Of a DNA stretch of 64,000 bases, positions 3,370 through 32,766 are shown piece by piece (position 1 is the first letter of the stretch; the number at the start of each line of letters is the position of its first letter). This stretch comes from an uncultured Verrucomicrobiae bacterium (lineage in GTDB: Bacteria; Verrucomicrobiota; Verrucomicrobiia; Chthoniobacterales; UBA10450). The position numbers and the translations under genes were made by a program. The DNA is taken from positions 64,001 through 128,000 of the forward strand of contig CAVYXA010000001.1 of the NCBI GenBank assembly GCA_963772365.1, given 5' to 3'. Below the pieces are notes generated by a model. It was given only the letters and a program-made list of their open reading frames with translations. It did no database searches and was not told where the DNA came from.

Positions 3370-3425
3370 GTCTTCCGCCGCGTCGCCGGCGTCACGCCGA
3401 CGGAGTTTCGGAGTGCGCTCTATAG
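3370..3425 (+). repeat. AraC-family gene 3'-end remnant, copy 1
   Basis: Reads VFRRVAGVTPTEFRSAL; 3383-3411 is identical (29 bp) to 5196-5224. Confidence 0.75.
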
Positions 3426-3460
3426 TTGTCTCGCGACGTAATTACAGTTACCCTCGCTCC

Positions 3461-3664
3461 GTGAGCCTCACCGAAATCAAGAGCGCCGTGGACGCCCTTT
3501 CTCCTGAAGAGCTTGCGGACCTGGCCGCTTTTATTCGCGAGCGGGACCAAGCCGCGTGGGATCGACAGATCGACGCCGACTTTGCCGATGGCGGACGGCT
3601 GCAGCGGGTGGCGGAAGAGGTTCGGGCGGACATCCGTGCGGGCCGCTTGCAGGACCTGCCGTGA
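3461..3664 (+). CDS. Putative antitoxin (small helical protein)
   Basis: GTG start, SLTEIKSAVDALSPEEL..WDRQIDADF; stop overlaps the downstream RelE-like gene (GTGA). Confidence 0.7.
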   Translation: MSLTEIKSAVDALSPEELADLAAFIRERDQAAWDRQIDADFADGGRLQRVAEEVRADIRAGRLQDLP

Positions 3665-3918
3665 CCGGGCGGACGCACCGTCGGTTCTGGAAGCAGTTCG
3701 ATTCGCTCCCTCCAGCCATCCAGAAACTCGCACGGGAAAAATACGCGCTCTGGAAGGACGATCCGTATCATGTCTCTTTGCGTTTCGAGGAACGGCGCAA
3801 CGGAATTTGCGTCGTCCGCATCGGCGAGCATTATCGCGCCGTCGGAGTGCGGGAAGGCGACGTGATCGCGTGGTTCTGGATCGGCACGCACGAGGAATAC
3901 AACCGCTTCCGCTTCTGA
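3661..3918 (+). CDS. RelE/ParE-superfamily toxin-like protein
   Basis: RFWKQFDSLP..HVSLRF..VRIGEHYRAVG..WFWIGTHEEYN. Confidence 0.75.
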   Translation: MTGRTHRRFWKQFDSLPPAIQKLAREKYALWKDDPYHVSLRFEERRNGICVVRIGEHYRAVGVREGDVIAWFWIGTHEEYNRFRF

Positions 3919-3964
3919 TCGACTGCTCCCATTTCAGCTTCTCAGATTGTCAGCGTGTCAACTT

Positions 3965-4040
3965 TTTCCTTGGACCGGCCTCAGTCCGCTGCAATTCGTC
4001 ACCCGCGAACTATCACCCGCGCCCCAGCAGATGATGCGGG
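3965..4040 (+). pseudogene. AraC HTH internal fragment
   Basis: TGLSPLQFVTRE..QQMMR; 3986-4002 is identical to 5098-5114. Confidence 0.6.
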
Positions 4041-4118
4041 CTGTAACCCGTCAGGCAGCCAGACATCCCTCGAAATTCAAGGATCAACCTCCAGGATCGC
4101 ACCTGGCCAGGATTTCAG

Positions 4119-4934
4119 CTATGCTGCGCGCCCCGTCACCCAAAGAGCTAGCAGGAGGCTGGCAATTGTGCCCATGCTCTTGACTGCGATGTAAAGGATA
4201 CAGACGGCGAGCGCCTTCCCTGCGCTCTGCGCCCACCTTTGTTCATAAACACGGCGGACCGACAGGAATATGTAGGTGAGCGACCAAATCAGAATGAGCA
4301 AAGAGACGATCGTGAAGACGCGTGCAACTTGCATCCCGAAAATCGCGTAGATCGGCCAGAAGATAATTCCCATCAGATAGGTGAACGCCAAAATGTGCAG
4401 CGCGAAAATGAGATGCTCTACGTAAAACCGCCGGCGTCTCACATAGAGGAGGGCCAGTCCGGTTGCGAGGGCGACCGGGTAAACGATTTCGCTGAAATAG
4501 AGATACTTTTGCCAGCGTGCATTCACTTCGAAGAGCATCTGCTCTTCGGTGGCGTGTCGCTTCTGCGCGATCGCCGTGATTCTCTTATGCCAGCCCGAGT
4601 CCCGCGCCATAAAGGAACGGACATCGTAGAGCGCGGCCGGCCGGTAGATCGAATAGAGGAAAATACTTAACGCGAAAGCCGTGACGTAGAGTTTTACCGG
4701 CCCGAGGTATGGCTTGACCGCGCCACGGACAAACTCCGTCGTGAGGTAGCCGGGCCGCAGGAAGAGGAGGCGCAGAGTTCTGATCAGCTTCGAGTGTTCG
4801 AAGTCGGCGACCTCCTCGAAGGTGCGGTGGAGGAAGCTGGAGATCTTCAGCTGGGAACGGTCCGGCCGGCGTTCCCCGCATTGCGCGCAATAGGCACCGG
4901 AGAGCGGTGCTCCACAACTGACGCATCGGTCCAC
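4119..4934 (-). CDS. DUF3667-domain membrane protein
   Basis: CxxC..YCxxCG zinc ribbon followed by LxxLFLRPGYLTTEF; multiple TM segments. Confidence 0.8.
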   Translation of the reverse strand: MDRCVSCGAPLSGAYCAQCGERRPDRSQLKISSFLHRTFEEVADFEHSKLIRTLRLLFLRPGYLTTEFVRGAVKPYLGPVKLYVTAFALSIFLYSIYRPAALYDVRSFMARDSGWHKRITAIAQKRHATEEQMLFEVNARWQKYLYFSEIVYPVALATGLALLYVRRRRFYVEHLIFALHILAFTYLMGIIFWPIYAIFGMQVARVFTIVSLLILIWSLTYIFLSVRRVYEQRWAQSAGKALAVCILYIAVKSMGTIASLLLALWVTGRAA

Positions 4935-5079
4935 GCCCGAGAGAAGCGCAAAAAGTGAAAAAGAGGAAGGGCAAAGACCTTTCCGCGACCCGCCTGCGCA
5001 TCACCCGCGGAAGTTTATTTCAGCGTTCAGATTTTGAAAGCCCGGCCGTTCGCTTCGCGATCCGTTACGGCAGCGTTTC

Positions 5080-5236
5080 CCAGAGATCGGCCTTTCCCCG
5101 CTGCAATTCGTCACGCGCGAGCGCATCACGAATTCCTCCTTCTGCCTTCATACTTTCTTCTCGCCCGAGCGCCTTCGCGCAAGTCTTTTGCCGCATCGCC
5201 GGCGTCACGCCGACGGAGTTTCGGGGCGTGCTCTAG
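5080..5236 (+). pseudogene. AraC-family regulator C-terminal remnant, copy 2
   Basis: IGLSPLQFVTRERIT...PSAFAQVFCRIAGVTPTEFRGVL*. Confidence 0.7.
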
Positions 5237-5294
5237 GCTCGGCAAGAACCGACACCGCCCTAATCTTATTCGGCGCGGCTTCCGCGAAAGGATA

Positions 5295-6206
5295 TCACCT
5301 AGAATTTGTACTCGCTGGTTTCCCTGGCTTGTATAAGATCAGCTGCCGTTTCGAAACCGTATGAGCCGTGTGCATCCTCACGGTGCTGCAGTCGATGCCG
5401 GCAGCCTTTGCCTCACGCTGAACGACGTCTGAACGGTGATATGTGATAATTACCGGTCCCGAGAAACCTCGGATCGCTTTAAACAGCTTTTCACAACTAA
5501 CATCATGATAGCTGTATAGCCGGAGACCAGCTCCGCGACCGTTTGCCACATATGGAGGATCCACGAAGGCGACGGCATTTGGGGTATCACTATAAACTCT
5601 TAGCGCTTCTAACCCGTCGCCGCATGCGAAAGTGATCTTGCTTCGCAGCGCGTGGACGGCTTCCACTCTCCTAGCGAGCGTCTCTGGGTACCAACGCGAT
5701 TGAATACCGCGATTCCGCTCACCACGATTTAGCAACCCTGCTCCGGGCGCCATGATGCCACCACGGGAAATCCGGTTCAATAGAAGGCAACGGAAAGCCC
5801 GGGAAACTGAATCTCCGCTTCGGCTCTTCAACGTCGCTCGCGCCGTCGCAGTGTCCAACGTGAAGGTTCTAATTCGCTTGGCTAGATGTTTAGCCCCGCC
5901 ATTAAGGATTACTTCCCAGACTGCTGCGACGTCCGGATCGATCTCGACTAGCGTGACGTTATCTACGAGATCCAATTCGGCGACCGCAAGCCCAACACTG
6001 GAGCCGCCCGCGAAGGGTTCGACGAAATGCGACGGCCGATATCCAAGATTACGAATCCATTCAATTATTTTCGGCCGGAGGGCACTCTTTCCTCCGGGAT
6101 ATCGAAAGGGACTAAGCGTTGATGGTCCCCGATTAGGGCCCAACTGTGATTCTCGTTTGGCGCGCTTGGTCAACTTGGCAACCGGTACCCCCAGTGTTCC
6201 CTGCAA
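5295..6206 (-). CDS. Dam/D12-class N6-adenine DNA methyltransferase
   Basis: SPFRYPGGKS, FVEPFAGGSSV, FVDPPY motifs. Confidence 0.9.
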   Translation of the reverse strand: MQGTLGVPVAKLTKRAKRESQLGPNRGPSTLSPFRYPGGKSALRPKIIEWIRNLGYRPSHFVEPFAGGSSVGLAVAELDLVDNVTLVEIDPDVAAVWEVILNGGAKHLAKRIRTFTLDTATARATLKSRSGDSVSRAFRCLLLNRISRGGIMAPGAGLLNRGERNRGIQSRWYPETLARRVEAVHALRSKITFACGDGLEALRVYSDTPNAVAFVDPPYVANGRGAGLRLYSYHDVSCEKLFKAIRGFSGPVIITYHRSDVVQREAKAAGIDCSTVRMHTAHTVSKRQLILYKPGKPASTNSR

Positions 6207-7069
6207 GAACGGCGTAGATCCTTGAATATCTTTGTAGAAGCAGGTCTAGAATCACCTGCCGAATGCAGCGCCACCCTGCAACGATCAAAGAAAATCCCAC
6301 CTAATCGGGCGTTATGTTTCCAATACCCTGCTTCAGGTGTCCGGTGCGGAACGAAATACGATCTAATCAGCGGACTTATCGGAGCATCCGAAAGCCAATT
6401 GTCCCAGAAGCCTTCTCGTGGTTGAAGTTCAGAGAGCTTAGCGCCGTCCCAGTTCGCTCCGGCGGCGCATTGCCCGAATAACATCAATTGGCTCCCGCGG
6501 CGATCCGGAAAAGCTTTCCAAGCCACCAAATCGAGTTTCCCATCCTGAATCCGAACCCCTTTCAATTGCTTGTAGCTCTCACCCTCATTCAATTCTGTCG
6601 CAAGCCGGTCTACTTGTGCTCGAAAAACGGCTTTCGCTCCGACGCTTTTCCTGCTCGACGTTCCAAAGAGTAGCGCGTCTCCACCGACATAAACGCGTGC
6701 TGCGACGCAGCTGAGATGTTCGAAGAGCAACCAGGGATCGAACTTCGCATTCCTTTTTTTCTTCCAGCCATAGTATGACAGCATGAGGCAAAATAGGTAT
6801 GGCGCTGGATTCACGGGAAAACTAGCGCGGAGCGATACAACGGTGCCTTTGACCTCAAAAGGGTAGGCGCTCGCTGCCGCCCGCTGACGTAGATGAACTT
6901 CGTCAAATACCTGCGCCAAGGTATCTCCCAAGTCGCCCGTCGTTTGGATATTCAGCGCCCTTTCTAGATCGCCTGCGCTAGAGTCGCCGTCGTCGGCCTC
7001 AATAGCGGTTAGCTCGAGCCAGTCCGCTAGTCGTGCCACGTCTGTTGTGGAATTGGGAGCACCCGGCAT
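6170..7069 (-). CDS. Hypothetical protein, putative restriction-endonuclease-like (PD-(D/E)xK variant) fold
   Basis: FEHL..DGKLDLVAW..LFGQCAAG pattern resembles E..D..QxK-type nucleases; operonic between ParB-like and MTase genes. Confidence 0.5.
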   Translation of the reverse strand: MPGAPNSTTDVARLADWLELTAIEADDGDSSAGDLERALNIQTTGDLGDTLAQVFDEVHLRQRAAASAYPFEVKGTVVSLRASFPVNPAPYLFCLMLSYYGWKKKRNAKFDPWLLFEHLSCVAARVYVGGDALLFGTSSRKSVGAKAVFRAQVDRLATELNEGESYKQLKGVRIQDGKLDLVAWKAFPDRRGSQLMLFGQCAAGANWDGAKLSELQPREGFWDNWLSDAPISPLIRSYFVPHRTPEAGYWKHNARLGGIFFDRCRVALHSAGDSRPASTKIFKDLRRSCREHWGYRLPS

Positions 7070-7081
7070 GGAGACGGAAAC

Positions 7082-8194
7082 TTACTTCCTGCGTTCCGCG
7101 ATCTGTCGCATTTCGCTTAGAATCGCAGTTGTCAACTTATGAATTCCCTCCATTGAGCTCAGCGGCTGCTGATCGCCTTTGTAGCCGGTGGTGACAGTGC
7201 CCCTAACCTCCTGCAAAGCATCTTTCGCGTTGATTAAAGATTCTTCGAAGCGTCGGCTGTCGCCGAGGCTGATCGCATAAGAACGCTCCAGACTGATGCC
7301 CGATCGAAGGGCGTTCAGAGCCGATCGGTCAGCGATTACGTCGCGTAGCATTGAAAGATGAGGATTCTGCTTTCTAACGATTGGATCCTTGTCTCGTGCC
7401 TTGTCCCCAAATAGCCAAACCATCAATTCACCGAGCTGCGGGAAGTGGGATCGCTTCACCGGGTTTTCCACAAGGGAATTCTCTTCCGTAACGCCGAGGA
7501 ACTTTTGAATATCCGGATAGGCTACAGCCGTGTACAAGTGAGAGAAATGCAGTCGATTCCTGACTCTATTTTCACGATCGAACAGACCTTTGTTTTCTGC
7601 CTGCTCAAGTAAGACATAGCCTCTATAAAACCGCTTTACAGTGCTGTGCTGGTCTCCGATTTTCCGCGCAATCGTGTCGAGGTCTATCCCTAGATCTCTA
7701 CGCACCTGCGCGACGTAGGTAGCTTTGGCTAAGGCGTCCCATTCTTTTGGGCCGTTAACATGCCGGAATCCAAAATATTCCCACAGAGCTTCCCGATCGG
7801 GGTAGACAGCAACCGGCAAGTATTGAAGACGTCGACGCTGCGATACTGTCAGCTTGGGAAGATCTGTCGCTTTAACCTTCGCGCGGAGGCCGTCGTCCGT
7901 CAGCAAGAGCACCGCGGATAGCCGACGATTGCCCTCGACTACAATGTAATGGGGCTCTTTTTTTGAATATCCTTTGGCTGGAATCGCGAGAAGCGGTTCC
8001 TCCGGGAAGAAGCCGTTCTCCGCGATTGAGAGCGCGACTTCACTCACAGCCATTTCTTGCCACATGGCTTTGACGAGGCCTTCAGGTCCCTTCGAAACAT
8101 CAACATGCGCCAATCGCGGATTATCGGGATCGAGCAGAAGGCGCCCGATCGCGATCGGCTCAATTTTCATTGGCTCCGGAGTGTCAGTCGGCAT
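7082..8194 (-). CDS. ParB/Srx N-terminal domain protein
   Basis: LLLDPDNPRL, SIAENGF, YIVVEGNRRLSAV, RHVNGPKEW; start probably ATG 8194. Confidence 0.8.
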   Translation of the reverse strand: MPTDTPEPMKIEPIAIGRLLLDPDNPRLAHVDVSKGPEGLVKAMWQEMAVSEVALSIAENGFFPEEPLLAIPAKGYSKKEPHYIVVEGNRRLSAVLLLTDDGLRAKVKATDLPKLTVSQRRRLQYLPVAVYPDREALWEYFGFRHVNGPKEWDALAKATYVAQVRRDLGIDLDTIARKIGDQHSTVKRFYRGYVLLEQAENKGLFDRENRVRNRLHFSHLYTAVAYPDIQKFLGVTEENSLVENPVKRSHFPQLGELMVWLFGDKARDKDPIVRKQNPHLSMLRDVIADRSALNALRSGISLERSYAISLGDSRRFEESLINAKDALQEVRGTVTTGYKGDQQPLSSMEGIHKLTTAILSEMRQIAERRK

Positions 8195-8294
8195 TTTGGA
8201 ATCAGTCGGCACAAATACGTTTCCATCATTCGTGGGCAACACGCGAGCACGAATATGCGCGCGGTTTGCGAGACTGGCGAGATCAGCGTTTCGG

Positions 8295-8331
8295 CGCAAG
8301 AACACGACAGCCGCCGCACGATCGCGCGAGC
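8295..8331 (+). repeat. Duplicate of the AKR upstream (AraC-site-like) motif
   Basis: 31/37 identical to 8977-9013; both copies are followed 30 nt later by ATGCAA. Confidence 0.65.
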
Positions 8332-8392
8332 CGCGTAAAGTCGCTGCGCTCCACGCGGCTCATGCAATTATTTGAGCCGAGGTCGGTCGAGG

Positions 8393-8658
8393 TTAGTGAG
8401 GAAAGCGGTGGTCGAAATCTTTGTGCGTTCCGACCCAAATCCAGAGCCACTGGTCTCGATGCCGGAGAGCGACGGCGCGAACATCTCTCGTAACCCGAAC
8501 CGACCAGGCACGCGGGTCGAAGCGCAGACGCTCGAGCCGTAAACCGGGATGGGCGGGGTTTTGGCTGAATAGCTGATACGCTCGCCGGGTCGCTGCTCGA
8601 ATTTCGGGTGGTAGCTCCGGTAAAGCTGCCAAAACTCCGGAGCGGCGCGGGAGGTCAC
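8393..8658 (-). pseudogene. RelE/ParE-like toxin, single-base frameshift near 8617
   Basis: MTSRAAPEFWQLYR | ELPPEIR..HPGLRLERL..WSVRV..WIWVGTHKDFD in two frames. Confidence 0.75.
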
Positions 8659-8664
8659 GCGCGC

Positions 8665-8904
8665 TTAATCGAAATCGCTCTCCGCGACTTTGGGATACGA
8701 TTCTGGCTCGGCCGAAAGATCAACTTCGTAGCGATCAAGCAGCGTGGTGAAGCTCGGGCGTGGCTGGTCATCGCGCAGAATGCGCTCCCATTCGGGATCA
8801 ACGGTTAGCTCGGGGAAAAGCTGCGGAAGATGCTGGAGAAGTTTCTCACGTTCAGCCTTCCCCAAGGCGCGAATCGCTTCTTCGATCTGCTGCGCTGTGC
8901 TCAC
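8665..8904 (-). CDS. Putative antitoxin
   Basis: MSTAQQIEEAIRAL..EWERI, same type as 3461-3664; directly upstream of toxin. Confidence 0.65.
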   Translation of the reverse strand: MSTAQQIEEAIRALGKAEREKLLQHLPQLFPELTVDPEWERILRDDQPRPSFTTLLDRYEVDLSAEPESYPKVAESDFD

Positions 8905-8976
8905 ATGCAGAGCTTACAGACTACAGGCGGACATCGCAATCCGAGAGACCGACCCCGCGGACGTGTCAGACTTTCT

Positions 8977-9013
8977 CGCAAGAACGCGACAGGCCGCGCA
9001 AGATCGCGAGAGC
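8977..9013 (+). promoter_or_regulatory. Tandem CGCAAGA direct repeats (20-bp period) upstream of AKR, likely AraC-family site
   Basis: cgcaaga-N13-cgcaaga; related motifs at about 2490 (upstream of the other AKR), 5241 and 8295. Confidence 0.5.
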
Positions 9014-9043
9014 GGGCTGACTCTTCAGCTGCGATTCTTGGTT

Positions 9044-9911
<868 letters not shown>

Positions 9912-10225
9912 GCGGTGCAGCCGGGGAGTCCAAATAGGATCAGCGTCTGAATCTTGCAATTTAGCGCGACAAACTACTCCTTCTATGTCGCCGCCTTCGA
10001 GCGCTCAAGCTTTTACTGCAGAACCCGGAGCGGTCGGAGCAGCAAACGCCACGTAAAATCTTCGATCACGTGGCGGACTCATGTAGACTCTGCCATCAGG
10101 CAGCATGAATGTCATCGCGGTAGGCACCGGCGCAGCGAGCGAGTATTTTTGATCCGACGCGCACGTGCCTCTGGCTGGTGCACACGACGATTGTGTTACC
10201 GCTCAATTTTTCACACGATAGCCCA

Positions 10226-11023
10226 ATGCGGATCGCGAGTGTAGGTCAGGTGGTTTTTGCGGCGACCATGATAGCGCTTGGAATCGCGGGTCTATCCAGA
10301 GGCGATTTCACGGCGATATGGTTGCCGGTCCCGAAGGATGTGCCCGCGAGGGAGGCGTTGGGTTACCTCTGCGCCCTCATATCTCTGGCGTCCGGGGTTG
10401 GGCTGCTCTGGCAACGCAGCGCCACGATCGCAGCCCGCGTATTATTTCTTTGGTTTTTATTTTGGTTGCTGCTCTTGCGCCTGCCCGGTTTCTCCCGTGG
10501 ATTCAAAGTCGACGTTTACTGGCCCGCGTGTCAGACCGCGGTGATGCTGGCAGCGGCATGGGTGCTATACACCTGGCTTGCGACTGATTGGGACAAGAAA
10601 TGGTTCGGTTTCGCCGCCGGCGAGAACGGTCTGCGCATCGCGAGAGCGCTCTACGGGCTCGCCTTGATTCCGTTTGGTCTGGCTCATTTCACCTACTTAA
10701 AGCAGACGACGGTGCTCGTGCCCGGATGGCTGCCATGGCATGTGGCGTGGGCGTATTTTACCGGCGCGGCCTTCATCGCGGCGGGCACCGCGATTATCCT
10801 CGGCTTATGGGCGCGACTCGCGGCGGCACTGTCGACCTTGCAAATGGGATTGTTCCTGCTGCTGGTGTGGATACCGAAGATCGCGGAAGGTTCAATGACG
10901 ACATTTCAGTGGGGCGAGGCTGTGGTCACGTGGGCGCTAACGAGTGCCGGCTGGGTCGTGACCGATTCTTATCGCGGTGCACACTGGCTCGTCCTAAAGC
11001 CGCGACGGGTCCCGCCCCTTTAG
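10226..11023 (+). CDS. DoxX-like membrane protein
   Basis: Multi-TM; FGLAHF..VPGWLPW..WAYFTG. Confidence 0.7.
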   Translation: MRIASVGQVVFAATMIALGIAGLSRGDFTAIWLPVPKDVPAREALGYLCALISLASGVGLLWQRSATIAARVLFLWFLFWLLLLRLPGFSRGFKVDVYWPACQTAVMLAAAWVLYTWLATDWDKKWFGFAAGENGLRIARALYGLALIPFGLAHFTYLKQTTVLVPGWLPWHVAWAYFTGAAFIAAGTAIILGLWARLAAALSTLQMGLFLLLVWIPKIAEGSMTTFQWGEAVVTWALTSAGWVVTDSYRGAHWLVLKPRRVPPL

Positions 11024-11119
11024 AAGCTGCCGCTTTTGCTATAGAAATCGGGGCGGTCGAAGCAGCAACGCATCGCCTTCCGGTGCGGAGATAGTTAATC
11101 TTAGCCGTTTCAGAATTTC

Positions 11120-12562: not shown

Positions 12563-12594
12563 ATTTTGCGGCATAGGCCTGAAAACAATTCAGT

Positions 12595-23830: not shown

Positions 23831-23848
23831 TCCCTAACAGATGCGTTG

Positions 23849-24007
23849 CTATCGTCCGCTTTGCTGTTGACCGCCGCCGGGCTGGCCCCCACGCTCCTCG
23901 CGCCGTTCCTGTCCACCGCCCTGTTGCCCGCCACCTTGGCCGCCGCCAGCAGGCTTGGTTGGGTCATTTGGTTTGGTTGGATCATTTGGGTTGCGTTGTG
24001 TTTCCAT
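23849..24007 (-). CDS. 52-aa Gly/Gln-rich hydrophilic small protein
   Basis: METQRNPNDPTKPNDPTKPAGGGQGGGQQ..; purine-rich leader and downstream terminator; below ORF-track cutoff. Confidence 0.55.
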   Translation of the reverse strand: METQRNPNDPTKPNDPTKPAGGGQGGGQQGGGQERREERGGQPGGGQQQSGR

Positions 24008-24159
24008 TTTAGTCTCTTTCTTTAGGTTAGTTGGGTTAACGGATCGGTCGTGTTCAACCGTTCTCTATCCTAAATCGAACCTGGTGCGGCATGCGGTTTC
24101 ACAATTCAACGCGCGTCGTGTCCCGATTGCTTTTCGCGCGACTAACTTTTGGTCCGAGA

Positions 24160-25065
24160 CTAATCTTGCGCGTTCACCTGTTCTATCGTTGTGCCAAAGT
24201 CTTTCGCCGCGTATTCGCGAAATTTTTCTTCGAGCACAGCCAAGTTTGAGAAAGTCCCGGCATAACTGCGGGCGAACGCGATTTCGAATGCTTGATGATG
24301 ACCCATCAAATCGAGCAGCAGCAGGAAATCTCGTTTGTCTGTCTTCGCTAGAAATCGCACCAGCCGTTCCGATTCATTGTAGAAAAGCTCGACATCGTCA
24401 GAGGGAACCTGGGTCATGGCAACAAGCTTGGGAATAGGAATCATCTCGCCTGGCGCAATCGCCTCCGAATGTGGCTTCGCAATGTAACCGCGAGCCCGCT
24501 GATAACTCGCGTGCGCGGCTTTGGAAATGTACTGGGCCAGACCTTCATTCAGCCAAAGGGCGATTCCCTCGGGATAAAACCGGTGCACGACCAAATGCAC
24601 AATCTCGTGACCAAGGCTGTTGTCGCTAAATCGATAGGCCGGGTTGCGCTGGATAAAAAGGCTGCCCATGGAATGAATGCCGCCTGTCCACGGCTCCAGT
24701 TTCCCGAACGCCTGAAATTGTCGCCAATCTTCTGGACGCTCAAAGATGTAGATGTGCGATTTGATGTCGCCCGGCGGCTGGTCGCGTTCCAGTTCTTTGG
24801 CAATTACGCGATAATGAAATTCGGCCTCTACCGAAATCGGTGTGGCCACATAGCTGTGGACGAAATGATAGATGAAATGCTCGGTCTCAGCGTGTTTCCA
24901 TTCGTCCGGATGAATGGCCAGCGCTTTTTCCCCCAGCGGATTCGGGTCGCGCTGGCTCAACTGATCGAAGGCGATTTCCGGAAGTGAGTTTAATTGAGCA
25001 TCGACCGGATGGATCCATGCTGTCGCCGTCAGCACGCCGATGAATAGGATCTGAGCGACTCGCAT
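24160..25065 (-). CDS. Secreted zincin/peptidase MA-like protein
   Basis: Signal peptide from ATG 25065; HEIVH..WLNEGLAQY. Confidence 0.7.
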   Translation of the reverse strand: MRVAQILFIGVLTATAWIHPVDAQLNSLPEIAFDQLSQRDPNPLGEKALAIHPDEWKHAETEHFIYHFVHSYVATPISVEAEFHYRVIAKELERDQPPGDIKSHIYIFERPEDWRQFQAFGKLEPWTGGIHSMGSLFIQRNPAYRFSDNSLGHEIVHLVVHRFYPEGIALWLNEGLAQYISKAAHASYQRARGYIAKPHSEAIAPGEMIPIPKLVAMTQVPSDDVELFYNESERLVRFLAKTDKRDFLLLLDLMGHHQAFEIAFARSYAGTFSNLAVLEEKFREYAAKDFGTTIEQVNAQD

Positions 25066-25362
25066 CCAGTTGGAGACAGCGATTTCTGTGCGAGCTCTTC
25101 GGAAGTGACGATCCATCTTTTGTGTGCGAGTTTTGAACGTGCTGGCCGTGTCGCGCCGAACGTAATTAAGCGCGCTGGCAAACCAAAACGTCGCGAGGCG
25201 TTGAATTCGAAAGCGACGCGAGGACACGCCGCAGCCAAAGCGAAGGCGGGTCACATAGCTCTCCGGGGCTGGTGGCTCGGCAGCCTTCGAATTTCCACGC
25301 AGCCTCGCGCTCAAGCGGATCAGTCCCCTTGTCGCCCTTCCCGAGCCGTGTTTACATCGACA

Positions 25363-26340
25363 ATGCGATCCCGATGGAAACAGCTGCGTTACCGGTTGGA
25401 GCATGCTGCTCTGGTTCTGGCCACGAAGCTGGTTCCATTGCTGCCGCGCAAATGTTGTCTCATCCTGGCTCGCGTTTTCGGATGGCTGATGTCTATCCTG
25501 GACCGGCGCAGCTTTCGGGTCGCTGTCAGTAACCTCGAAGCGGCCTTCGGCGACCAGTATACCGAAAGCGAGCGCCGCAAAATCGCGCGCGAATCCTTCC
25601 AGCATTTCGCCCGCAGCGCCGTCGATCTCCTCTGGAGTCCGCGTCTGACGCGCCAGAATATTTCGCGATTTGTTGAGCTGGAAAATTTCGAGGAAATCGC
25701 ACGCAGCACCGGCCCGGAACGCAGCCTGATGATCGCCTGTTTTCACTACAGCAATTTCGAATGGCTTAGTCTGGCCTGCGCCTATTTTGGATTGGAGGGC
25801 GCGATCATTACGCAAGAATTCAAAAATTCATCGCTCGAGCCGGTCTTTAGACGAATCCGGGAACGTTCCGGACATAAAATGGTGCCGCGCGAACGTGGCA
25901 TCATGCAGCTTTACAAGATCGCCCGGCGCAAAGGTCGCATCGCGTTGCTTGTCGATCTTACGGTTCCGCCCCGGCGAGGAGGAGTGGCGATCGAATGCTT
26001 TGGCTTAAAGACGAGCGTGACTGCCGCCCATGTCTGGTTGCACGACAAAACAGGTATTCCTCTTGTTCCAGCCCATTGTGAACCGTTGCCCGACGGTCGA
26101 TATCGGATCGTCTTTCATCCAAAGATTGAGATCGCCCCGGGCCAGGCGCATGAACACGTGGCGCAGCTTTGCTGGAATTCATTCGAACCGTATGTCCGTA
26201 ACAATCCCGCGCCATGGCTCTGGATGTACAAACATTGGCGGTATCGCCCGGCCAAGGCGACAAGACCGTATCCGTTTTATTCGGGTTTTTCCTGGAAGTT
26301 TGAGGCGCTGTTGGGAAATACCAAACCGGCCGCCGGTTGA
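25363..26340 (+). CDS. Lipid A acyltransferase (LpxL/HtrB family)
   Basis: NLEAAFG, HYSNFE, ALLVD, PAPWLWMYKHWR. Confidence 0.85.
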   Translation: MRSRWKQLRYRLEHAALVLATKLVPLLPRKCCLILARVFGWLMSILDRRSFRVAVSNLEAAFGDQYTESERRKIARESFQHFARSAVDLLWSPRLTRQNISRFVELENFEEIARSTGPERSLMIACFHYSNFEWLSLACAYFGLEGAIITQEFKNSSLEPVFRRIRERSGHKMVPRERGIMQLYKIARRKGRIALLVDLTVPPRRGGVAIECFGLKTSVTAAHVWLHDKTGIPLVPAHCEPLPDGRYRIVFHPKIEIAPGQAHEHVAQLCWNSFEPYVRNNPAPWLWMYKHWRYRPAKATRPYPFYSGFSWKFEALLGNTKPAAG

Positions 26341-26374
26341 CAAAAGGCCGCGCGCCTCGAATGATTTTGGCGCT

Positions 26375-27034
26375 ATGAGAACCGTTCCCCAGCTTATCAC
26401 TATCGCCGCCGCGCTTGCTTTGTTCACCGGATGCCAGACCGGTGGCCTCGTTTCCCGAGGCGGACCCTACCACGTGACTGCTCTCCGGCCGCACGATCCA
26501 TCCGACGTCCGAGTAAAAGTTTCGCTGTCCAAGCAAAATATTTACGTCATGGAAGGCGACCGTTGTTTGATGGCGGTGGCCTGTTCTGTCGGAACTTCCG
26601 AGAAACCGACCCCGAAAGGCAATTTCAAAATTTACAGCAAGATTGAGCATAAGCGGTCGGGCTCATACGGATTCAGCGTGCACGGCAACACCGTTGTGCC
26701 GACGACCGCCGGCGGTGCGTCCGGTCGTTATGTCGGTTATCCAATGGGTTTCTGGTGCGAATTTGCGCCAGCCTACGGATTTCATCAGGGCTTCGTTCAT
26801 CCCACGCCGCGGACGCATGGTTGTATTCGGCTCAAGGGCGAAGCCGCGCCGAAATTTTATGCGCTGATGCGGATTGGAACGCCCGTCAATATCGCAACAA
26901 CTCAGCCCGAAGACGAAACGATCGGCCCGAAGGTGCAACGGGTGGATGACTCCAGACTTCCAGATCCCGATCCGCGCTTTATGATTTCCGACGCGGCGTT
27001 CCAAAAGCCGAGCGGCGAATTGCTGGAGCAGTAA
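26375..27034 (+). CDS. L,D-transpeptidase (YkuD) lipoprotein
   Basis: Lipobox FTGC; PTPKGNFKI; GFH..THGCIRL. Confidence 0.88.
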   Translation: MRTVPQLITIAAALALFTGCQTGGLVSRGGPYHVTALRPHDPSDVRVKVSLSKQNIYVMEGDRCLMAVACSVGTSEKPTPKGNFKIYSKIEHKRSGSYGFSVHGNTVVPTTAGGASGRYVGYPMGFWCEFAPAYGFHQGFVHPTPRTHGCIRLKGEAAPKFYALMRIGTPVNIATTQPEDETIGPKVQRVDDSRLPDPDPRFMISDAAFQKPSGELLEQ

Positions 27035-27069
27035 TCAGCAGGAGGATTATTGCCGCCAAGGCCTGGCCG

Positions 27070-27159
27070 TGTCATGTTGAGCGGAGCGAAACAATCTCCG
27101 GCTTTTCGAGTGCGGTGAGATAAAATGACGCGAGATTCTTCGCTTCGCTCAGAATGACA
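27070..27159. repeat. Palindromic intergenic element
   Basis: tgtcatgttgagcggagcgaaacaatctc...gagattcttcgcttcgctcagaatgaca inverted arms. Confidence 0.7.
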
Positions 27160-27172
27160 AACTGAGGAAATT

Positions 27173-28411
27173 ATGAGCACAAACCTGATCTCCAGCGGCA
27201 CGACGGCGCGCGAGAAAATTAATTTACGCACGCCGGACGTGATGGCGGCCGTGCAGGAACAGGTCGAATCCCATTATCGCAGCGACATCGTCGATAAAAT
27301 CCGGCGGGCCGGCGGAATTATTTCGGTAGGAAATACCACTGTGCGGCTGGCGAAACAATTCGGCTTTTGCTACGGCGTCGAGCGCGCCATCGATCTCGCC
27401 TATGCCGCGCGCAAGGTGTTCAAGGATCGCCGGCTCTTCATTGTCGGCGAAATCATTCACAATCCGGAAGTCAACCAGCAGATCGCCGCGCTCGGTATCA
27501 AGAATCTCACTGGAAAAAACAAAGAGGCTGATATCTCCGATCTCGGCCCAGATGATGTCGTCATCGTGCCGGCGTTCGGGACGGAGTTGGCGATCCAGCG
27601 ACAAATCAAAGATCGCGGCTGCCAGATTGTCGATACTACCTGCGGCGACGTGATGAGCGTCTGGAAACGGGTTCGCAAGTATGCCAGCGAATCGGCTACT
27701 TCCATCATTCACGGCAAAGCCGAACACGAAGAGACCAAAGCCACCAGCTCGCGCGCTCTCGGCGACGGCAATGGACATTATCTCGTCGTGCTCACTCTGG
27801 CCGAGACCGATTACGTTTGCGATTACATCCGGCACGGCGGGGATAAGCATGCGTTTCTGGAGAAATTCAAAGGCGCCTACTCGGCGGGATTCGATCCCGA
27901 TATCCACCTCCAAACTGTCGGCGTAGCCAATCAAACCACCATGTTGCGCGGCGAGACCGAGGAAGTGCAGCGAAGAGTCCGGAAAGCAGTTGTCGATCGT
28001 GACGGCCCCGAGCTAGCCCAAAAGAATTTCCGATTCTTCGACACCATCTGCGGCGCAACACAGGAACGTCAGGATGCGTTGCGCGAGCTTCTTAACGTGT
28101 CGATGGATTTGCTCCTGGTCGTCGGCGGTTACAACAGCTCCAACACATCGCATCTGGCCGAGATGGGCGAAGAGAAATTGCCCACCTATTTTGTACTCAA
28201 TGCCTCACGACTCGTTTCCGCGAACGAGATCAAGCATTACGATCTACACGAGAAACGCGAAGTCGTTTCCCATTTCTGGCTCCCGCCCGGCCCAGCCGTC
28301 ATTGGCATCACCGCCGGCGCATCCTGCCCGAACAATCTGATTGAAGAAACATTGATCCGCCTCTTCGAGCTACGCGGTATTTCGCGCGACCAACTTGATC
28401 TCGCCGCGTAA
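27173..28411 (+). CDS. ispH: 4-hydroxy-3-methylbut-2-enyl diphosphate reductase
   Basis: FGFCYGVERA, EIIHN, DTTC, NQTT, DTICGATQERQ, SSNT, GITAGASCP. Confidence 0.95.
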   Translation: MSTNLISSGTTAREKINLRTPDVMAAVQEQVESHYRSDIVDKIRRAGGIISVGNTTVRLAKQFGFCYGVERAIDLAYAARKVFKDRRLFIVGEIIHNPEVNQQIAALGIKNLTGKNKEADISDLGPDDVVIVPAFGTELAIQRQIKDRGCQIVDTTCGDVMSVWKRVRKYASESATSIIHGKAEHEETKATSSRALGDGNGHYLVVLTLAETDYVCDYIRHGGDKHAFLEKFKGAYSAGFDPDIHLQTVGVANQTTMLRGETEEVQRRVRKAVVDRDGPELAQKNFRFFDTICGATQERQDALRELLNVSMDLLLVVGGYNSSNTSHLAEMGEEKLPTYFVLNASRLVSANEIKHYDLHEKREVVSHFWLPPGPAVIGITAGASCPNNLIEETLIRLFELRGISRDQLDLAA

Positions 28412-28493
28412 AATCGCCTACAGCAGTTTATTTGAAGGATATTGGCATAAATCTGCGTTGCCGCGTTGATGTGCGCTGATTATTCTAAATGAC

Positions 28494-28697
28494 ATGAACT
28501 TGCGCTTGGTAGTGGAGCATGATCCGGAGAGCAAGCGCTGGGCGGCTTTCTTTCCGGAACTGCCTGGGTGCGCTTCGGCAGGTGATACCGAGCAAGAAGC
28601 GATCGACAACGCAAAGGAGGCGCTCGAACTCTGGTTTGAACCCACTCCGGCTGCGGTTCCTCCCGGCGCTAAGGTCGTGGAAGTTGCTCTTACGTGA
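28494..28697 (+). CDS. hicB: HicB-family antitoxin
   Basis: FPELPGCASAGDTEQEAIDNAKEALELW. Confidence 0.9.
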   Translation: MNLRLVVEHDPESKRWAAFFPELPGCASAGDTEQEAIDNAKEALELWFEPTPAAVPPGAKVVEVALT

Positions 28698-28912
28698 GCG
28701 AGCGGTTTCCAGTGCGCAGCGCTCGTGACGTGATTCGGGTGTTGCGCAAGCATGGTTTCGCAATGCTCCGCCAGCGCGGTAGCCATCAGAAATGGCGACA
28801 TCCCAACGGGCGGCAAGTAATCGTCGCCGTGCACGGCAACAAACCGATTCCGATCGGTACATTAAAAAGTATCATCGAAGGAAGCGGATTAACCGTGGAG
28901 CACTTTCGATAG
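28694..28912 (+). CDS. hicA: HicA-family mRNA interferase
   Basis: LRKHGF..RQRGSH..VAVH..IPIGTLKSI. Confidence 0.9.
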   Translation: MSERFPVRSARDVIRVLRKHGFAMLRQRGSHQKWRHPNGRQVIVAVHGNKPIPIGTLKSIIEGSGLTVEHFR

Positions 28913-28916
28913 AGGC

Positions 28917-29025
28917 GGCATGACCGCTGGCGCATCCTGTCCCGAATAACCTGATTGAAGAAACATTGATCCGCCTCTTCGAATTACGCGGCATTTCGCG
29001 CGAACAACTCGGACTCGCGGCGTAG
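28917..29025 (+). repeat. Diverged duplicate of ispH 3' end (28304-28411)
   Basis: 32-bp identical core ctgattgaagaaacattgatccgcctcttcga; other differences mostly at third codon positions. Confidence 0.9.
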
Positions 29026-29037
29026 GGATCATGCTTC

Positions 29038-29066
29038 AAAACCAAATTCGCGACGGCGAATTTGGT
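29038..29066 (-). terminator. Terminator at distal end of CRISPR array
   Basis: accaaattcgc-gacg-gcgaatttggt hairpin with T-run on minus strand. Confidence 0.7.
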
Positions 29067-29074
29067 CTTTCTTT

Positions 29075-29466
29075 GCGCCTCAGCATTTCTGAAATCGCGA
29101 TGACTGCGATAACGCTGCGGACGACGAGTATAACGAGAACGTATTCCCGCCTCAGCATTTCTGAAATCGCGATGACTGCGATTTTGCCCTTGGACGGCGC
29201 TGGCGAGCACTCTCTGCCGCCTCAGCATTTCTGAAATCGCGATGACTGCGATTGCTGCCGCGCCTGCTACCTGGCCGATACTACTTATCCGCCTCAGCAT
29301 TTCTGAAATCGCGATGACTGCGATGATACTTCCAAGATCGATAACGATCAATGGCATGTCCGCCTCAGCATTTCTGAAATCGCGATGACTGCGATCCGGC
29401 AGCCAAACAGTGGGCTACAACGATTTCGCGCCGCCTCAGCATTTCTGAAATCGCGATGACTGCGAT
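29075..29466 (-). CRISPR. CRISPR array, 6 x 36-bp repeats and 5 spacers (34-36 bp); repeat 5'-ATCGCAGTCATCGCGATTTCAGAAATGCTGAGGCGG-3'
   Basis: Repeats start at 29075, 29147, 29217, 29289, 29360, 29431; the 29075 copy has a terminal mismatch and an adjacent terminator, so transcription is inferred on minus. Confidence 0.97.
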
Positions 29467-29596
29467 CCACCCTGTCAATAACCGGCAACTTCCCGTGGTG
29501 TCGTTAGGCGAATATCGAGCGCACTCTCGAAATGCGATGGCCTATCGCGGTCAAAAGTCATTTGCGAGTCGGAGGACGCAACGAATTTCAGAGGTA

Positions 29597-29760
29597 ATCG
29601 CAGCCGCGCGAGCGCTGCCGCAGTAGCGCCACAGCAATCTCGCGCTCGCTAGTCTCGTTTATCGCGATTTCAAAGAGCTGCTTCTCCAATGGCGGAAGAG
29701 AAGTGGTCGGTGGCAGAGGCCTTTCGGCTTTGTTTGCCAAGCTAATTAAAGAGCGCGTTA
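29597..29760 (-). ncRNA. Predicted tracrRNA (boundaries approximate)
   Basis: Anti-repeat at 29661-29680 (12-bp perfect plus GCUG), CCGCC at 29691-29695 in a stem-loop, and a 9-nt match at 29597-29605. Confidence 0.75.
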
Positions 29761-29804
29761 GAACGATTGGCAAATTCGAAATCAACTCCGAAAGCTTTCG
29801 CGAG

Positions 29805-30095
29805 CTAGATCACAGTGACGCGCGTTCTGACTGTGTAAGGTAAACCCATCGCTTCGATGATCAGGCTTGCGTCATTTGAGCTTGGTCCAAGCGAGACGAA
29901 CAAAACCTGGTCTTCATCATGATTCAAGATTGGGTGAAGAGATGTTTTCAGATTTGCCATCCTCAGATCGTCGAGCGGACATTCGAAAACAGAGTACTGC
30001 AAGCGCACGCCAAAGCCTTCGAGGACACGCGCGACCTGTCGCAAACGTTTCGGGTTGCAAATATCGTAACTGACGAGATAGCGGAGCCGGCTCAT
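29805..30095 (-). CDS. cas2: CRISPR-associated Cas2
   Basis: YLVSYDI..KRLRQV..GVRLQYSVFEC; ATG 30095 overlaps cas1 stop. Confidence 0.95.
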   Translation of the reverse strand: MSRLRYLVSYDICNPKRLRQVARVLEGFGVRLQYSVFECPLDDLRMANLKTSLHPILNHDEDQVLFVSLGPSSNDASLIIEAMGLPYTVRTRVTVI

Positions 30096-31903
30096 CGCGT
30101 TGTGAAACCGTGGTAAGCGATAGCCTCGCCGCGCACGAAGCGCCAAAGTTGTCGCGCCTGCACTTCGAGCATTCGTCGATAAGCCATCTTGTAGACGAAC
30201 TGCGGATGACTTACTTCCGCGTCGAGCCGGCGGAACCATGCCTCCCAAAATGCTTTTCGACCTCGCTCGTTTAGAAAAGTGCCGCTGGCGCTGCGAATGA
30301 AATCGTCTGCGCCGACTTCGCCGCGATTCACGAGTGAGATGGCGACGCTGTCTGCGATGAGGGGACGAAATTCTTCCATCAAATCCAGCGCGAGCGCGGG
30401 CCGGCCGTAGCGCGGCTGATGCATGAAGCCGAGAAACGGATCGAGTCCCACTGCGTCGCAGACGCCGGTGAGTTCTTTGGCCAGCATGGAGTAGCCTAAC
30501 GAGAGCAACGCGTTCGCGGGATCGCGAGGCGGACGGCGATTGCGTCCACGCCAGTCGAATTTCCACGATTCTTTCAACATCGATTCGAACTGTTCGAAGT
30601 AGAGCGCGGCGGCCGTGCCTTCGATGCCGAGCAATTCCGTCATGTCATGGGCCGACTCCGTGGCGTCGCGAAAACCGGCAAGCAATTGCAAGACGCGATC
30701 AGGCACATCGCCATTGCGCATGAGCATGGTGCGTTGATTGTGAATTTTCGCGCGCACCACTTCACGCGCGAGTTGCAGACGCACGCCGGGGAGTTCGAAG
30801 AGACGATATTGTCCGCGGCGCGCGTCCACGCCACTCACCGGCAAGGCGCGCAACGTCCCGAGAAAACGCCCCGCTGGGCTAAAGTAAGCGACGTCGATTC
30901 CGAGCTCGAGGCACGTCTCGATCGCCTGCGCGGTTAATTGAATCGCGCCATAACAGTAAATCGCGCGTAGTTGATGCCCAGGCAGCTTGCGCGCTTCCGC
31001 GCCCTTCACCGAGACGACAAACTGATCGCCGCGCTGTCCAATTTGCGCTCCCGGAGTTTGCACCACCAACACTTCGCCGTCGTCGTGCTCCGGGCGCGGC
31101 GGCTGTAGAGTATGGGCCTTCTTTCCAGATTCGGCTGCGAATTCGAGCGCTTCGAAAATCTGCTCGCGCACATGATCCTCCGCTGGCGCGCTGAACCCGA
31201 AGCGAAGTTGATCATCCGGCTTCGCGGCTTTGCCCGCTCGCGCCCACCACCAGGACTCGTTAGGCAAACAGATCGGATACGCCGAACAATACAGACATCG
31301 CGGATCGTTTTTCAGCGGAGGCGGGCACTTGCCACTCGCCGCGACTGCGCGCGTTTGCTCGATGGTAGTTAGAACTTTCGCAAACAACTCTTCACTCAAT
31401 TCCAGTGGCACACGCCGCTTCTCCGCTGCGTAATAAATTGCGGCGCGCGTGGCGTTGATACCGATCTCGCGCAGCAAGAGCGCATGCGCGGCTACCTGAA
31501 TGGCATCGGGCTCTTTCGCAACACGCTCGCCGTTGTTATCGCGTCGCGCCGACCCTTTTTTGTAATCGACAATCTCCGCGCCGTCCGGACCGCCCTCGAT
31601 GAGATCGACGACGCTAATCAATCCCAGCGACGCGCTTTCCAACCGCAAACTTCGCAGCGTCGCGCCTTCAGGAAGATTTTCGCCGAGCGCTTTCAGTTTC
31701 TCTTCATCGACACGCGAGGCGCGATCGACATTGCGATGCGCATGCGACCCTTCGATCGTATCGGCGTTCTCCTGAAAAATATTCTCGACCCACTGATAAT
31801 AAAAAAGCCGCGGGCAATAGATGAAATTATGCAACCGCCGCACCGGCATCGGCGGCTGCGATTCAAGCCCGCCTTGCGTTTGCACCGGCGCATCGATTGA
31901 CAT
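30092..31903 (-). CDS. cas1: Cas4-Cas1 fusion
   Basis: YCPR..VDYKKG..CLYCS..ICLP (Cas4) plus GIEG, RNRRPPRDPAN, GLDPFLGFMH, LDLMEEFRP (Cas1). Confidence 0.95.
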   Translation of the reverse strand: MSIDAPVQTQGGLESQPPMPVRRLHNFIYCPRLFYYQWVENIFQENADTIEGSHAHRNVDRASRVDEEKLKALGENLPEGATLRSLRLESASLGLISVVDLIEGGPDGAEIVDYKKGSARRDNNGERVAKEPDAIQVAAHALLLREIGINATRAAIYYAAEKRRVPLELSEELFAKVLTTIEQTRAVAASGKCPPPLKNDPRCLYCSAYPICLPNESWWWARAGKAAKPDDQLRFGFSAPAEDHVREQIFEALEFAAESGKKAHTLQPPRPEHDDGEVLVVQTPGAQIGQRGDQFVVSVKGAEARKLPGHQLRAIYCYGAIQLTAQAIETCLELGIDVAYFSPAGRFLGTLRALPVSGVDARRGQYRLFELPGVRLQLAREVVRAKIHNQRTMLMRNGDVPDRVLQLLAGFRDATESAHDMTELLGIEGTAAALYFEQFESMLKESWKFDWRGRNRRPPRDPANALLSLGYSMLAKELTGVCDAVGLDPFLGFMHQPRYGRPALALDLMEEFRPLIADSVAISLVNRGEVGADDFIRSASGTFLNERGRKAFWEAWFRRLDAEVSHPQFVYKMAYRRMLEVQARQLWRFVRGEAIAYHGFTTR

Positions 31904-31941
31904 AGCTAACTATCTTAGCTAATCTCGTCGCTGTGACGCAA
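31897..31941. promoter_or_regulatory. Overlapping divergent promoters with palindromic operator
   Basis: Plus strand TTGACA(31897)-17-TAATCT; minus strand TTGCGT-18-TAAGAT; TAGCTAA-N5-TTAGCTA at 31903-31921. Confidence 0.7.
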
Positions 31942-32202
31942 GCGACCATTCATCAGGCAAAGACGCACCTCTCCAAACTCATTCGCAAAGCGCTCGACGG
32001 CGAAGAAGTGATTATCGCCAACCGCGACAAGCCACTTGTTCGGCTGGAAGCCGTAGCAGGTGGATCAAGCTCCCGCCGCATCGGCGGTCTTAAGCGCTGG
32101 GCGAAGCGACGCCCGCTGGAGTTGAATGATCCTAAAGCAAACCGGAGGATCGAGCGCGACTTTGCCCGAACTGACCGGCGCGATCCGCTGTTGTGGAAGT
32201 AA
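31933..32202 (+). CDS. Phd/YefM antitoxin
   Basis: TIHQAKTHLSKLI..GEEVIIA..KPLVRL. Confidence 0.9.
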   Translation: MTQATIHQAKTHLSKLIRKALDGEEVIIANRDKPLVRLEAVAGGSSSRRIGGLKRWAKRRPLELNDPKANRRIERDFARTDRRDPLLWK

Positions 32203-32208
32203 GAGCAA

Positions 32209-32598
32209 ATGCTGCTCGATACCCACGCGCTCTTGTGGATGGTGCTGGATGACCCGCGGTTGTCCCGCCGCGCTCGCTCTGAAATCGAGAAAGCTGAGGG
32301 CCTTGCTTATTCAATTGCGAGTTTCTGGGAAATTGCGCTCAAGTTGAGCATTCCGAGATATCAAAAGAAGCTGGCCTTGCCCGAAGCATGGCATCAAGAC
32401 TTGTTAGGGGAGATGCGCGCGATTGGCGCCGAGCGGCTCGAAATTCAACCGCAACACTGTCGCCATTTGCAGGACCTGCCCTGGCATCATAAGGATCCAT
32501 TCGATCGCATGTTGATCGCCCAGGCACAGGTCGAGCGATTGCCGATCCTAAGTGCCGATCGACGTTTCAAAAAGTATGGAATCAAAATAGTCTGGTAA
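32209..32598 (+). CDS. vapC: VapC/PIN-domain toxin
   Basis: LLDTHALLW, SIASFWEI, HHKDPFDRMLIAQA, LSAD. Confidence 0.92.
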   Translation: MLLDTHALLWMVLDDPRLSRRARSEIEKAEGLAYSIASFWEIALKLSIPRYQKKLALPEAWHQDLLGEMRAIGAERLEIQPQHCRHLQDLPWHHKDPFDRMLIAQAQVERLPILSADRRFKKYGIKIVW

Positions 32599-32621
32599 GA
32601 TGCGTCAACTGCGCACCGACC

Positions 32622-32766
32622 CTCGCCGAGGGCTCCTGGCTTTCTTCATCGACACGCAGCGAGGCGCGATCGGGATTGTAATGCGCATGAAATTATGCAA
32701 CCGCCGCGCCGGCATCGGCGGTTGCTGCTCAAGGCCGCCTTGCGTTTGAACGGGGGCATCGCTCAT
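32622..32766 (-). pseudogene. Displaced, decayed copy of cas4-cas1 5' end
   Basis: MSDAPVQTQGGLEQQPPMPARRLHNF vs intact MSIDAPVQTQGGLESQPPMPVRRLHNF; internal deletion, then DRAS..RVDEE remnant. Confidence 0.9.

Follow-up and report, generated by a model that had tools for sequence, protein, structure and literature searches.

The stretch of DNA studied here (the window: 64,000 nucleotides, G000:C1:64001-128000) comes from a metagenome-assembled genome of 3.35 Mb, in six contigs and 90% complete, and it contains three loci at which toxin–antitoxin (TA) pairs or defence genes lie between diverged copies of one end of a host gene. Such cassettes, bracketed by gene ends and free of any integrase, are a real, frequent and genome-wide footprint in this bacterium. 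Start positions are approximate, because genes were called with a hexamer model made for this analysis. At the first locus, hicBA lies between two 3' ends of ispH:

27173-28411, + strand: ispH (LytB; Pfam PF02401), the intact host gene
28304-28410, + strand: intact-side copy of the duplicated ispH 3' end
28494-28697, + strand: hicB antitoxin (PF15919)
28694-28912, + strand: hicA toxin (PF07927), its stop codon 4 nt ahead of the scar
28917-29024, + strand: displaced ispH 3' end (the scar), 108 nt with one extra base, 88% alike to the intact end
29076-29466: CRISPR array of 6 repeats, directly 3' of the ispH scar
38108-39052, + strand: ku (PF02735)

The original prediction, which placed hicBA between two ispH 3' ends differing mainly at synonymous sites, was confirmed on both counts: 10 of the 12 mismatches fall at third codon positions, and eight codons differ synonymously against three non-synonymously. 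In at least 8 of the 21 relatives listed, ku lies closely downstream of ispH. Here a type V-B CRISPR locus lies between these two genes, and the first and second loci stand at the edges of parts of it. The second consists of phd-vapC between two 5' ends of cas4-cas1:

29805-30095, − strand: cas2 (PF09827)
30092-31903, − strand: cas4-cas1 fusion (PF01867, PF01930), the intact host gene
31821-31895 and 31680-31744 (span 31680-31895), − strand: intact-side cas4-cas1 5' segments, duplicated
31933-32202, + strand: phd/yefM antitoxin (PF02604)
32209-32598, + strand: vapC (PIN) toxin (PF01850)
32687-32761 (88%) and 32623-32689 (79%) (span 32623-32761), − strand: cas4-cas1 5' scar in two pieces
35353-37968 and 33300-35561 (span 33300-37968), − strand: cas12b, in two overlapping open reading frames (ORFs)

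The segment 31821-31895 pairs with 32687-32761, and 31680-31744 with 32623-32689, about 76 nt having been deleted between the two pieces of the scar; the predicted placement of phd-vapC between two cas4-cas1 5' ends is borne out by both. An ORF6N gene (32782-33285) stands between Cas12b and this scar, and the two Cas12b ORFs overlap by about 200 nt, through a real frameshift or a long-read error. The third locus is built from orphan pieces of araC and from copies of the operator of an aldo-keto reductase (AKR):

2490-2530, + strand: operator/promoter motif before the first AKR gene
2566-3344: first AKR gene, frameshifted
3370-3422, + strand: orphan araC 3' tail, copy 1
3461-3918, + strand: small antitoxin-like gene (no Pfam match) plus ParE-like toxin (PF24732)
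about 3973-4035, + strand: inner araC piece, frameshifted, orphan copy 2
4119-4934, − strand: DUF3667 cargo gene
5071-5235, + strand: orphan araC 3' end, copy 3, split by a pyrimidine-rich insert
5295-8242, − strand: three-gene defence cassette, its outer genes matching PD-Lambda-5 B (adenine methyltransferase) and PD-Lambda-5 A
8295-8335, + strand: displaced AKR operator/promoter copy with no AKR gene after it (5'-type scar)
8396-8904, − strand: ParE-like toxin plus small partner
8977-9911, + strand: operator plus broken second AKR gene (start 9044)
9174-9509, − strand: four-helix-bundle (23S rRNA IVP) gene interrupting the second AKR gene

The araC pieces alternate with the first ParE-like pair, the DUF3667 gene and the PD-Lambda-5-like cassette, while two copies of the operator motif, which occurs at 2490, 8295 and 8977, flank the second ParE-like pair. 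The stretches 3370-3422 and 5183-5235 (53 nt, 89% alike) translate as the C-terminus of AraC. The prediction of several cargoes between repeated araC 3' ends and AKR-promoter copies holds for the repeats. Neither blastn nor blastp found an intact parent araC in this genome; for that reason, gene restoration is not visible here. Moreover, an ordinary regulon operator may account for the copy at 2490, because the motif follows araC by about 15-40 nt in 9 of 17 loci of relatives. The second AKR gene has lost its middle, and 12 four-helix-bundle (23S rRNA IVP) genes are present in the genome. Beyond the array, a 37-nt direct repeat (81%; 10009-10045 and 11032-11068) surrounds a gene of 265 aa without a Pfam match.

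Within the family, the araC tail was found in 15 of 151 genomes, in 20 copies, one alone of which lies in an open frame of more than 190 aa; orphan tails occur in 14 of the 151, against that single long-frame copy, and long-frame parents are common in sister families. The tails stack, with four copies in G026, and the ParE-like cassette 8313-9008 is shared, together with its flanking motif copies, with two genomes of other genera, G094 (75% over 701 nt) and G026. Viral contigs gave no match to the pattern of the araC tail. Empty alleles of all three loci are present in relatives, at genus-to-order level: a second C-terminal ispH match occurs in G000 alone among 58 genomes with a match and is absent from the 57 others, Cas12b lies within 400 nt of the cas4-cas1 start in 44 of the 55 distinct metagenomic loci with enough upstream DNA, and the ancestral order araC, operator, AKR is retained in L378, L383 and L384.

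The pattern extends well beyond the window. By scanning the genome for gene-end duplicates at a threshold of at least 41 bits, local copies were found downstream of the 3' end in 19 hosts, upstream of the 5' end in 8, and on the inner sides in 5 (3' end, upstream) and 7 (5' end, downstream), before any host was dropped. Shuffled tiles gave 0, 0, 0 and 1 for the same four classes, and inverted matches 2 against the 19 downstream 3' copies, which excludes chance. Once seven hosts that were copies of transposases or belonged to paralogue arrays had been removed, 27 of the 31 terminal copies (19 3'-downstream and 8 5'-upstream) lie outside the intact gene (p=3e-5). The hosts include thrS, aldehyde dehydrogenase, isocitrate/isopropylmalate dehydrogenase, an ABC permease, glf, thiC, a DinG-like helicase and an ECF sigma factor. 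The repeat arms are locus-specific, with 2-3 copies each, and in 12 loci they could be aligned over 58-182 nt around inserts of 0.45-1.1 kb.

TA genes are over-represented between these duplicates, as had been suspected. Twenty-seven markers were picked independently by Pfam family (13 PIN, 5 HicA, 4 ParE and 5 DUF2283), and a marker was counted as enclosed when a direct repeat lay on both sides within 2 kb; this was so for 13 of the 27, and none was enclosed by inverted repeats. Two whose repeats are not gene ends were then removed from the enclosed set: at C5:31192 the two copies fall within large genes on either side, and C2:46190 involves a dispersed repeat of 10 copies. The remaining 11 of 27, compared with 45 of 1,055 other small genes enclosed by any direct repeat, correspond to an odds ratio of 15 (Fisher p=1.8e-8); they include two loci of the window, and two have only orphan copies nearby. 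Elsewhere on the contig, a TA-rich array (G000:C1:570939-573864, L224) contains three copies of the start of an apparent 5'-3' exonuclease gene plus a 42-nt thiC tail; it lies 140 kb from thiC, and in relatives an exonuclease adjoins thiC scars.

Two mixed strains would also give allele-like differences between copies, and the frameshifts in cas12b and the AKR gene may be sequencing errors. However, a strain chimera or mis-assembly of the metagenome-assembled genome is very improbable as the source of the layout, given that the scars have deletions, extra bases and inserted elements foreign to functional alleles, that the copies show strong polarity, and that the same layout is present at the same genes in many independent assemblies.

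The divergence of the copies bears on how they arose. In 12 loci whose cargo is TA or TA-like (Pfam confirming a toxin in 9), codon positions 1, 2 and 3 carry 31, 28 and 115 mismatches, so that 66% are at third positions (p=2.6e-5 against 50%); the differing codons divide into 94 synonymous and 50 non-synonymous, and the 1,268 nt aligned contain 3 gaps. The corresponding counts for a broader set of 22 loci are 78, 63 and 240. At 5 of 12 ispH and 7 of 18 thrS differences, the base in the scar is the more frequent of the two among 28 relatives; a few scar bases, however, were found in none of them. The suggestion that the duplicates resemble alleles is supported by the third-position excess and by these commoner scar bases, and because the copies also lie outside the intact gene in 27 of 31 cases, the scars are best read as once-functional alleles to which some decay has been added.

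These data also bear on the explanation that each insertion made a fresh target duplication, of the break-repair type, whose copies started identical and then diverged through purifying selection on one side, scar decay on the other and occasional gene conversion. In its favour, the scars hold indels and small inserts, relatives are on average nearer the intact copy, and published intraspecies cases with restriction–modification (RM) genes show 44-47 of 46-47 nt identical, as given in Table 2 of the article (PMC2853133). At cas4-cas1, moreover, each of the six scars resembles its own intact copy more than that of any other locus, the hosts being 63-87% alike over the stretch (own-copy identities of 95, 91, 83, 88, 85 and 86%, against 94, 78, 77, 81, 71 and 83% for the best other). 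Decay of a fresh duplicate beside a drifting gene would, by the analysis's own estimate, put about 45-50% of mismatches at third positions, well below the share found, and the 3 gaps are few. The thrS pair is a mosaic, identical over a patch of 87 nt and then differing at 15 sites within the final 37 nt (p<0.001), and thiC scars are nearer other genomes' alleles in 16 of 21 cases. On this evidence fresh duplication is considered unlikely. The longest identical run clearly exceeds expectation only in thrS and the ECF gene.

A search for recombinases supported the claim that no cognate integrase accompanies the cargoes. No integrase was found in the 50 ORFs of 1-38 kb of the window, and no integrase or transposase among the Pfam matches of the enclosed cargo genes. 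The genome has eight tyrosine-recombinase matches, all more than 230 kb away or on other contigs, and its 90% complete assembly contains no resolvase-family match; no tyrosine or serine recombinase lies in or beside the elements. Terminal inverted repeats, the mark of transposons and of miniature inverted-repeat transposable elements (MITEs), had been predicted to be absent and enclose none of the 27 TA markers or of the 67 hicA loci described below. A Y1-transposase-like fragment (43508-43777) and a tRNA-Leu (46715-46795) adjoin none of the three loci.

The junctions were compared by eye and by DNA folding, and no shared motif, att core or hairpin was found over 27 pairs. A local thrS scar, present in 4 of 58 genomes, has its own start in each (nt 119, 148, 182 and 215 of a 300-nt query), thiC junctions vary likewise, and cas4 scars end near codons 33, 46, 52 and 75. 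The exception to this variability is a register shared by four cas4-cas1 loci, where the scar or a short remnant lies exactly 6 nt past the hicA stop, at cas4 codon 33. The hicBA pairs of these loci are 70-80% alike, and a single clade was rejected (p-AU 0.0007; 52-row tree, group named beforehand). The shared register fits an old junction whose arms and cargo were refreshed by recombination; it could also reflect a weak site preference. An apparent conserved motif before the thiC scars proved to be a separate insert of about 80 nt within them. This element follows GAA at three positions in the thiC scars of six genomes (L226, L304, L305, L306, L308 and L323), a relative of it lies inside an araC scar (L361), one clear copy is present in G000 at C1 about 710700, and it looks like a small repetitive extragenic palindromic (REP)- or MITE-like element.

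The shared register and the eight tyrosine-recombinase matches could be accommodated if the cassettes were minimal islets or eroded integrative elements served by an integrase in trans, the duplicates being attL and attR with a replacement gene end; two hicBA loci within tRNA-His 3' duplicates of 56-59 nt point the same way. More than ten unrelated targets in one genome without a common core, the use of 5' and 3' ends alike, junctions that vary at thrS, thiC and cas4, and the lack of a resolvase-family match in the genome or of a recombinase near the loci of the window make this a rather improbable account.

The original prediction went on to propose that small TA units spread as circles or fragments carrying a piece of their target gene. 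The hicA of the window has its best relatives mostly in Verrucomicrobiota, and 80 homologue loci were collected, 67 of which have at least 1 kb on either side and were counted. Direct repeats enclose 21 of the 67. Their arms could be named in 10: cas4-cas1 5' (2), tRNA-His 3' (2), the 5' end of a PQQ-repeat gene, MFS 3', ComM-type ATPase 3', ABC ATPase 5', NrpR 3' and the 3' end of a 168-aa gene; the other 11 had no name assigned or resembled dispersed repeats. Since homologues of the ispH-linked hicBA lie between the ends of many different genes, and ispH accompanies none of the 80, a fixed pairing of TA unit and target was rejected; the TA units have no fixed target. Both tRNA-His cases are from Acidobacteriota (L059 and L108; 2169-2776), and in them the scar adjoins the hicA end.

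A life cycle specific to TA genes, in which circles equipped with a target arm of their own leave the chromosome, spread and re-enter one by single crossover, fits the compactness of the units: in 9 of 23 repeat-enclosed loci the nearest right-hand copy overlaps or lies within 13 nt of the computed hicA stop. The occurrence of the 8313-9008 pair with its flanking copies in other genera, and of similar Phd-ParE pairs at the thiC end in two genera, would also agree with it. Yet homologous hicBA pairs bear many different arms, non-TA cargo is found with the same scars, and the one hicA homologue in viral contigs has no repeats around it, so that such a cycle is regarded as improbable.

Other cargo and other hosts gave a similar picture. 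Of the 25 best PIN loci of relatives, 6 lie between direct repeats and 1 between inverted repeats, a survey that includes the unpublished genomes G003 (positive), G008 and G014, G008 being also counted for ispH and for thrS/thiC. In fragmented relatives, many PIN genes are no more than a few hundred bases from a contig start (for example G050:C148:180, G047:C254:21, G038:C404:166). Short-read assemblies may break at repeat-flanked cassettes, giving under-counts. Scars of thiC are present in 14 of 37 fetched genomes, selected partly for showing a second match; they are often stacked, and the cargo found near them includes ParE-Phd, PemK, DUF4258, DUF433 and restriction-type genes. The architecture is not TA-specific: the thrS scars of three relatives hold genes that do not look like TA genes, as judged without a Pfam scan, and one cas4-cas1 scar holds a four-helix-bundle gene. 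The cas12b|cas4-cas1 junction also receives nucleotidyltransferase-HEPN, AbiEii-type and four-helix-bundle cargo. In type V-B CRISPR loci (L034, L038, L045, L074, L120 and L187), close relatives of the hicBA of the window stand at the start of cas4-cas1, and five of these six pairs share a supported 11-row clade with it, although here it sits across the array.

Taken together, the repeats are probably the scars of an integrase-free, homology-anchored insertion carried out by host recombination, the scar being later reused as a second arm. DNA of a relative, with a gene end beside a small cassette, would enter the cell, and the gene end would anchor in the resident gene end through host recombination, the other side being joined illegitimately or the DNA having first been closed into a circle. 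This would yield a single complete gene together with the cassette and a diverged copy of the gene end in a displaced position. To judge from the polarity, insertions with the spare copy outside the gene would leave it whole and survive. The scar could then act as a second arm, by which the unit may be lost, stacked or passed by ordinary recombination to any relative with that gene. One-arm linear, two-arm linear and circular routes are indistinguishable from the present data. The thrS mosaic is suggestive of homology-facilitated illegitimate recombination, with no donor or conspecific allele found. comEC, dprA, ku and ligD, all of them widespread genes, are present in the genome.

Several observations weigh against this insertion model. 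Sixteen of the 27 TA markers have no gene-end duplicate, and several enclosed TAs appear broken. Relatives are on average slightly nearer the intact copy than the scar (19 vs 5 for ispH, 23 vs 3 for thrS), as plain decay would likewise predict, the thiC scar is nearest its own gene in just 5 of 21 cases, and the apparent age of stacked thiC scars does not change consistently from the nearest to the farthest. At the cas12b|cas4-cas1 junction, scarless cargo (L117, L120, L136, L143, L191 and L192) is commoner than scarred (L129, L187 and faintly L119), and therefore scars mark just some insertions, or erode. The empty alleles stand at genus-to-order level, with no empty and occupied pair from the same species. 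The presence of comEC and dprA does not show competence, because they were matched in 10 and 11 of 14 control genomes. Finally, the enclosure of TA markers (11/27) does not differ significantly from that of four-helix-bundle genes (2/12; p=0.27), for which reason addiction is not demonstrated as the cause of the TA excess. It is a plausible one, the excess likely arising because TA pairs are small, mobile and punish their own loss.

A bolder version can be put forward tentatively, as a possibility short of an even chance: gene-end-flanked TA and defence cassettes may be minimal enzyme-free mobile units, the scar serving as a portable homology arm renewed at each transfer, and scars may outlive their parent gene as landing pads, forming integron-like arrays run by host recombination alone. 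If this were true, a cassette could enter any relative with the gene, whatever the synteny, which would explain the spread of solitary TA pairs without mobile elements. Chromosomal TA pairs are patchy and often outside recognisable mobile elements. Here direct repeats, many of which are gene ends, enclose about 40% of the TA markers of a single genome, and in relatives about 30% of the loci homologous to hicA and about a quarter of the sampled PIN loci, which provides a countable footprint of integrase-free gene gain, with named hot spots at thiC, thrS and the cas12b|cas4-cas1 junction.

Among known systems, integrative elements regenerate the end of a tRNA or protein gene at attL/attR, and the present loci resemble them in having an intact gene, cargo and a displaced, diverged gene end. 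They differ in having no integrase, no shared core, variable junctions, both 5' and 3' ends as targets and inserts of 0.5-1 kb. Closer still is the insertion of RM genes with long target duplication, for which Nobusato et al. (2000) is cited.

In the later article on this process by Furuta, Abe and Kobayashi (2010; PMC2853133), RM genes lie in inserts of less than 20 kb between variable direct repeats of more than 30 bp, with no other mobile element, and the repeats often span a start or stop codon, so that the gene stays intact; the cargo is addictive and the species are mostly competent. The authors proposed a cycle of invasion, amplification and release, with release and reinfection lacking experimental evidence by their own account; this step of the RM 'virus-like cycle' becomes testable with cassettes of 0.5-1 kb. 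The present loci share with it the variable repeats above 30 bp (58-182 nt) around short inserts (0.45-1.1 kb), the absence of another mobile element among the Pfam matches of the inserts, and a single-copy empty site in relatives, here at genus-to-order level. In contrast, the cargo here is mostly type II TA, with RM-like genes in some arrays (thiC and the araC–AKR locus), and the gene-end copies are 72-95% alike and rich in synonymous differences where RM copies are near-identical. There are also hot spots across the family (thiC, thrS, cas4-cas1), scars that stack, and orphan scars whose parent gene has been lost. The term 'toxin-antitoxin' is absent from the article's main text, while its supplements may list TA-bearing inserts.

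A second parallel is offered by the 3'-displacement arrays of Rhs, contact-dependent inhibition (CDI) and type VI secretion system (T6SS) loci. In the available parts of two articles (PMC5361080, PMC2884548), homology-facilitated illegitimate recombination, with a one-sided anchor and an illegitimate join, is proposed; a module is added, the old end is pushed downstream, and the arrays then travel by ordinary recombination. There the process is termed rare and target duplication is not part of the account. The mechanism proposed here works in the same way, whereas the displaced pieces, which in those arrays belong to the toxin/immunity family, are here the ends of unrelated housekeeping, regulatory and cas genes.

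No published description of such a layout for type II TA modules was found, subscription journals being outside the coverage. Two TA reviews (PMC2654758, PMC3874152) have the phrase for long target duplication in the reference list alone, and a preprint on HicA context (10.1101/2023.12.08.570793) contains none of 'duplicat', 'direct repeat', 'integrase' and 'recombination'. Thus, while the layout itself is already described for RM genes (PMC2853133), what is added here is a measured enrichment of TA genes, allelic arms, family-wide hot spots and arrays of parentless scars.

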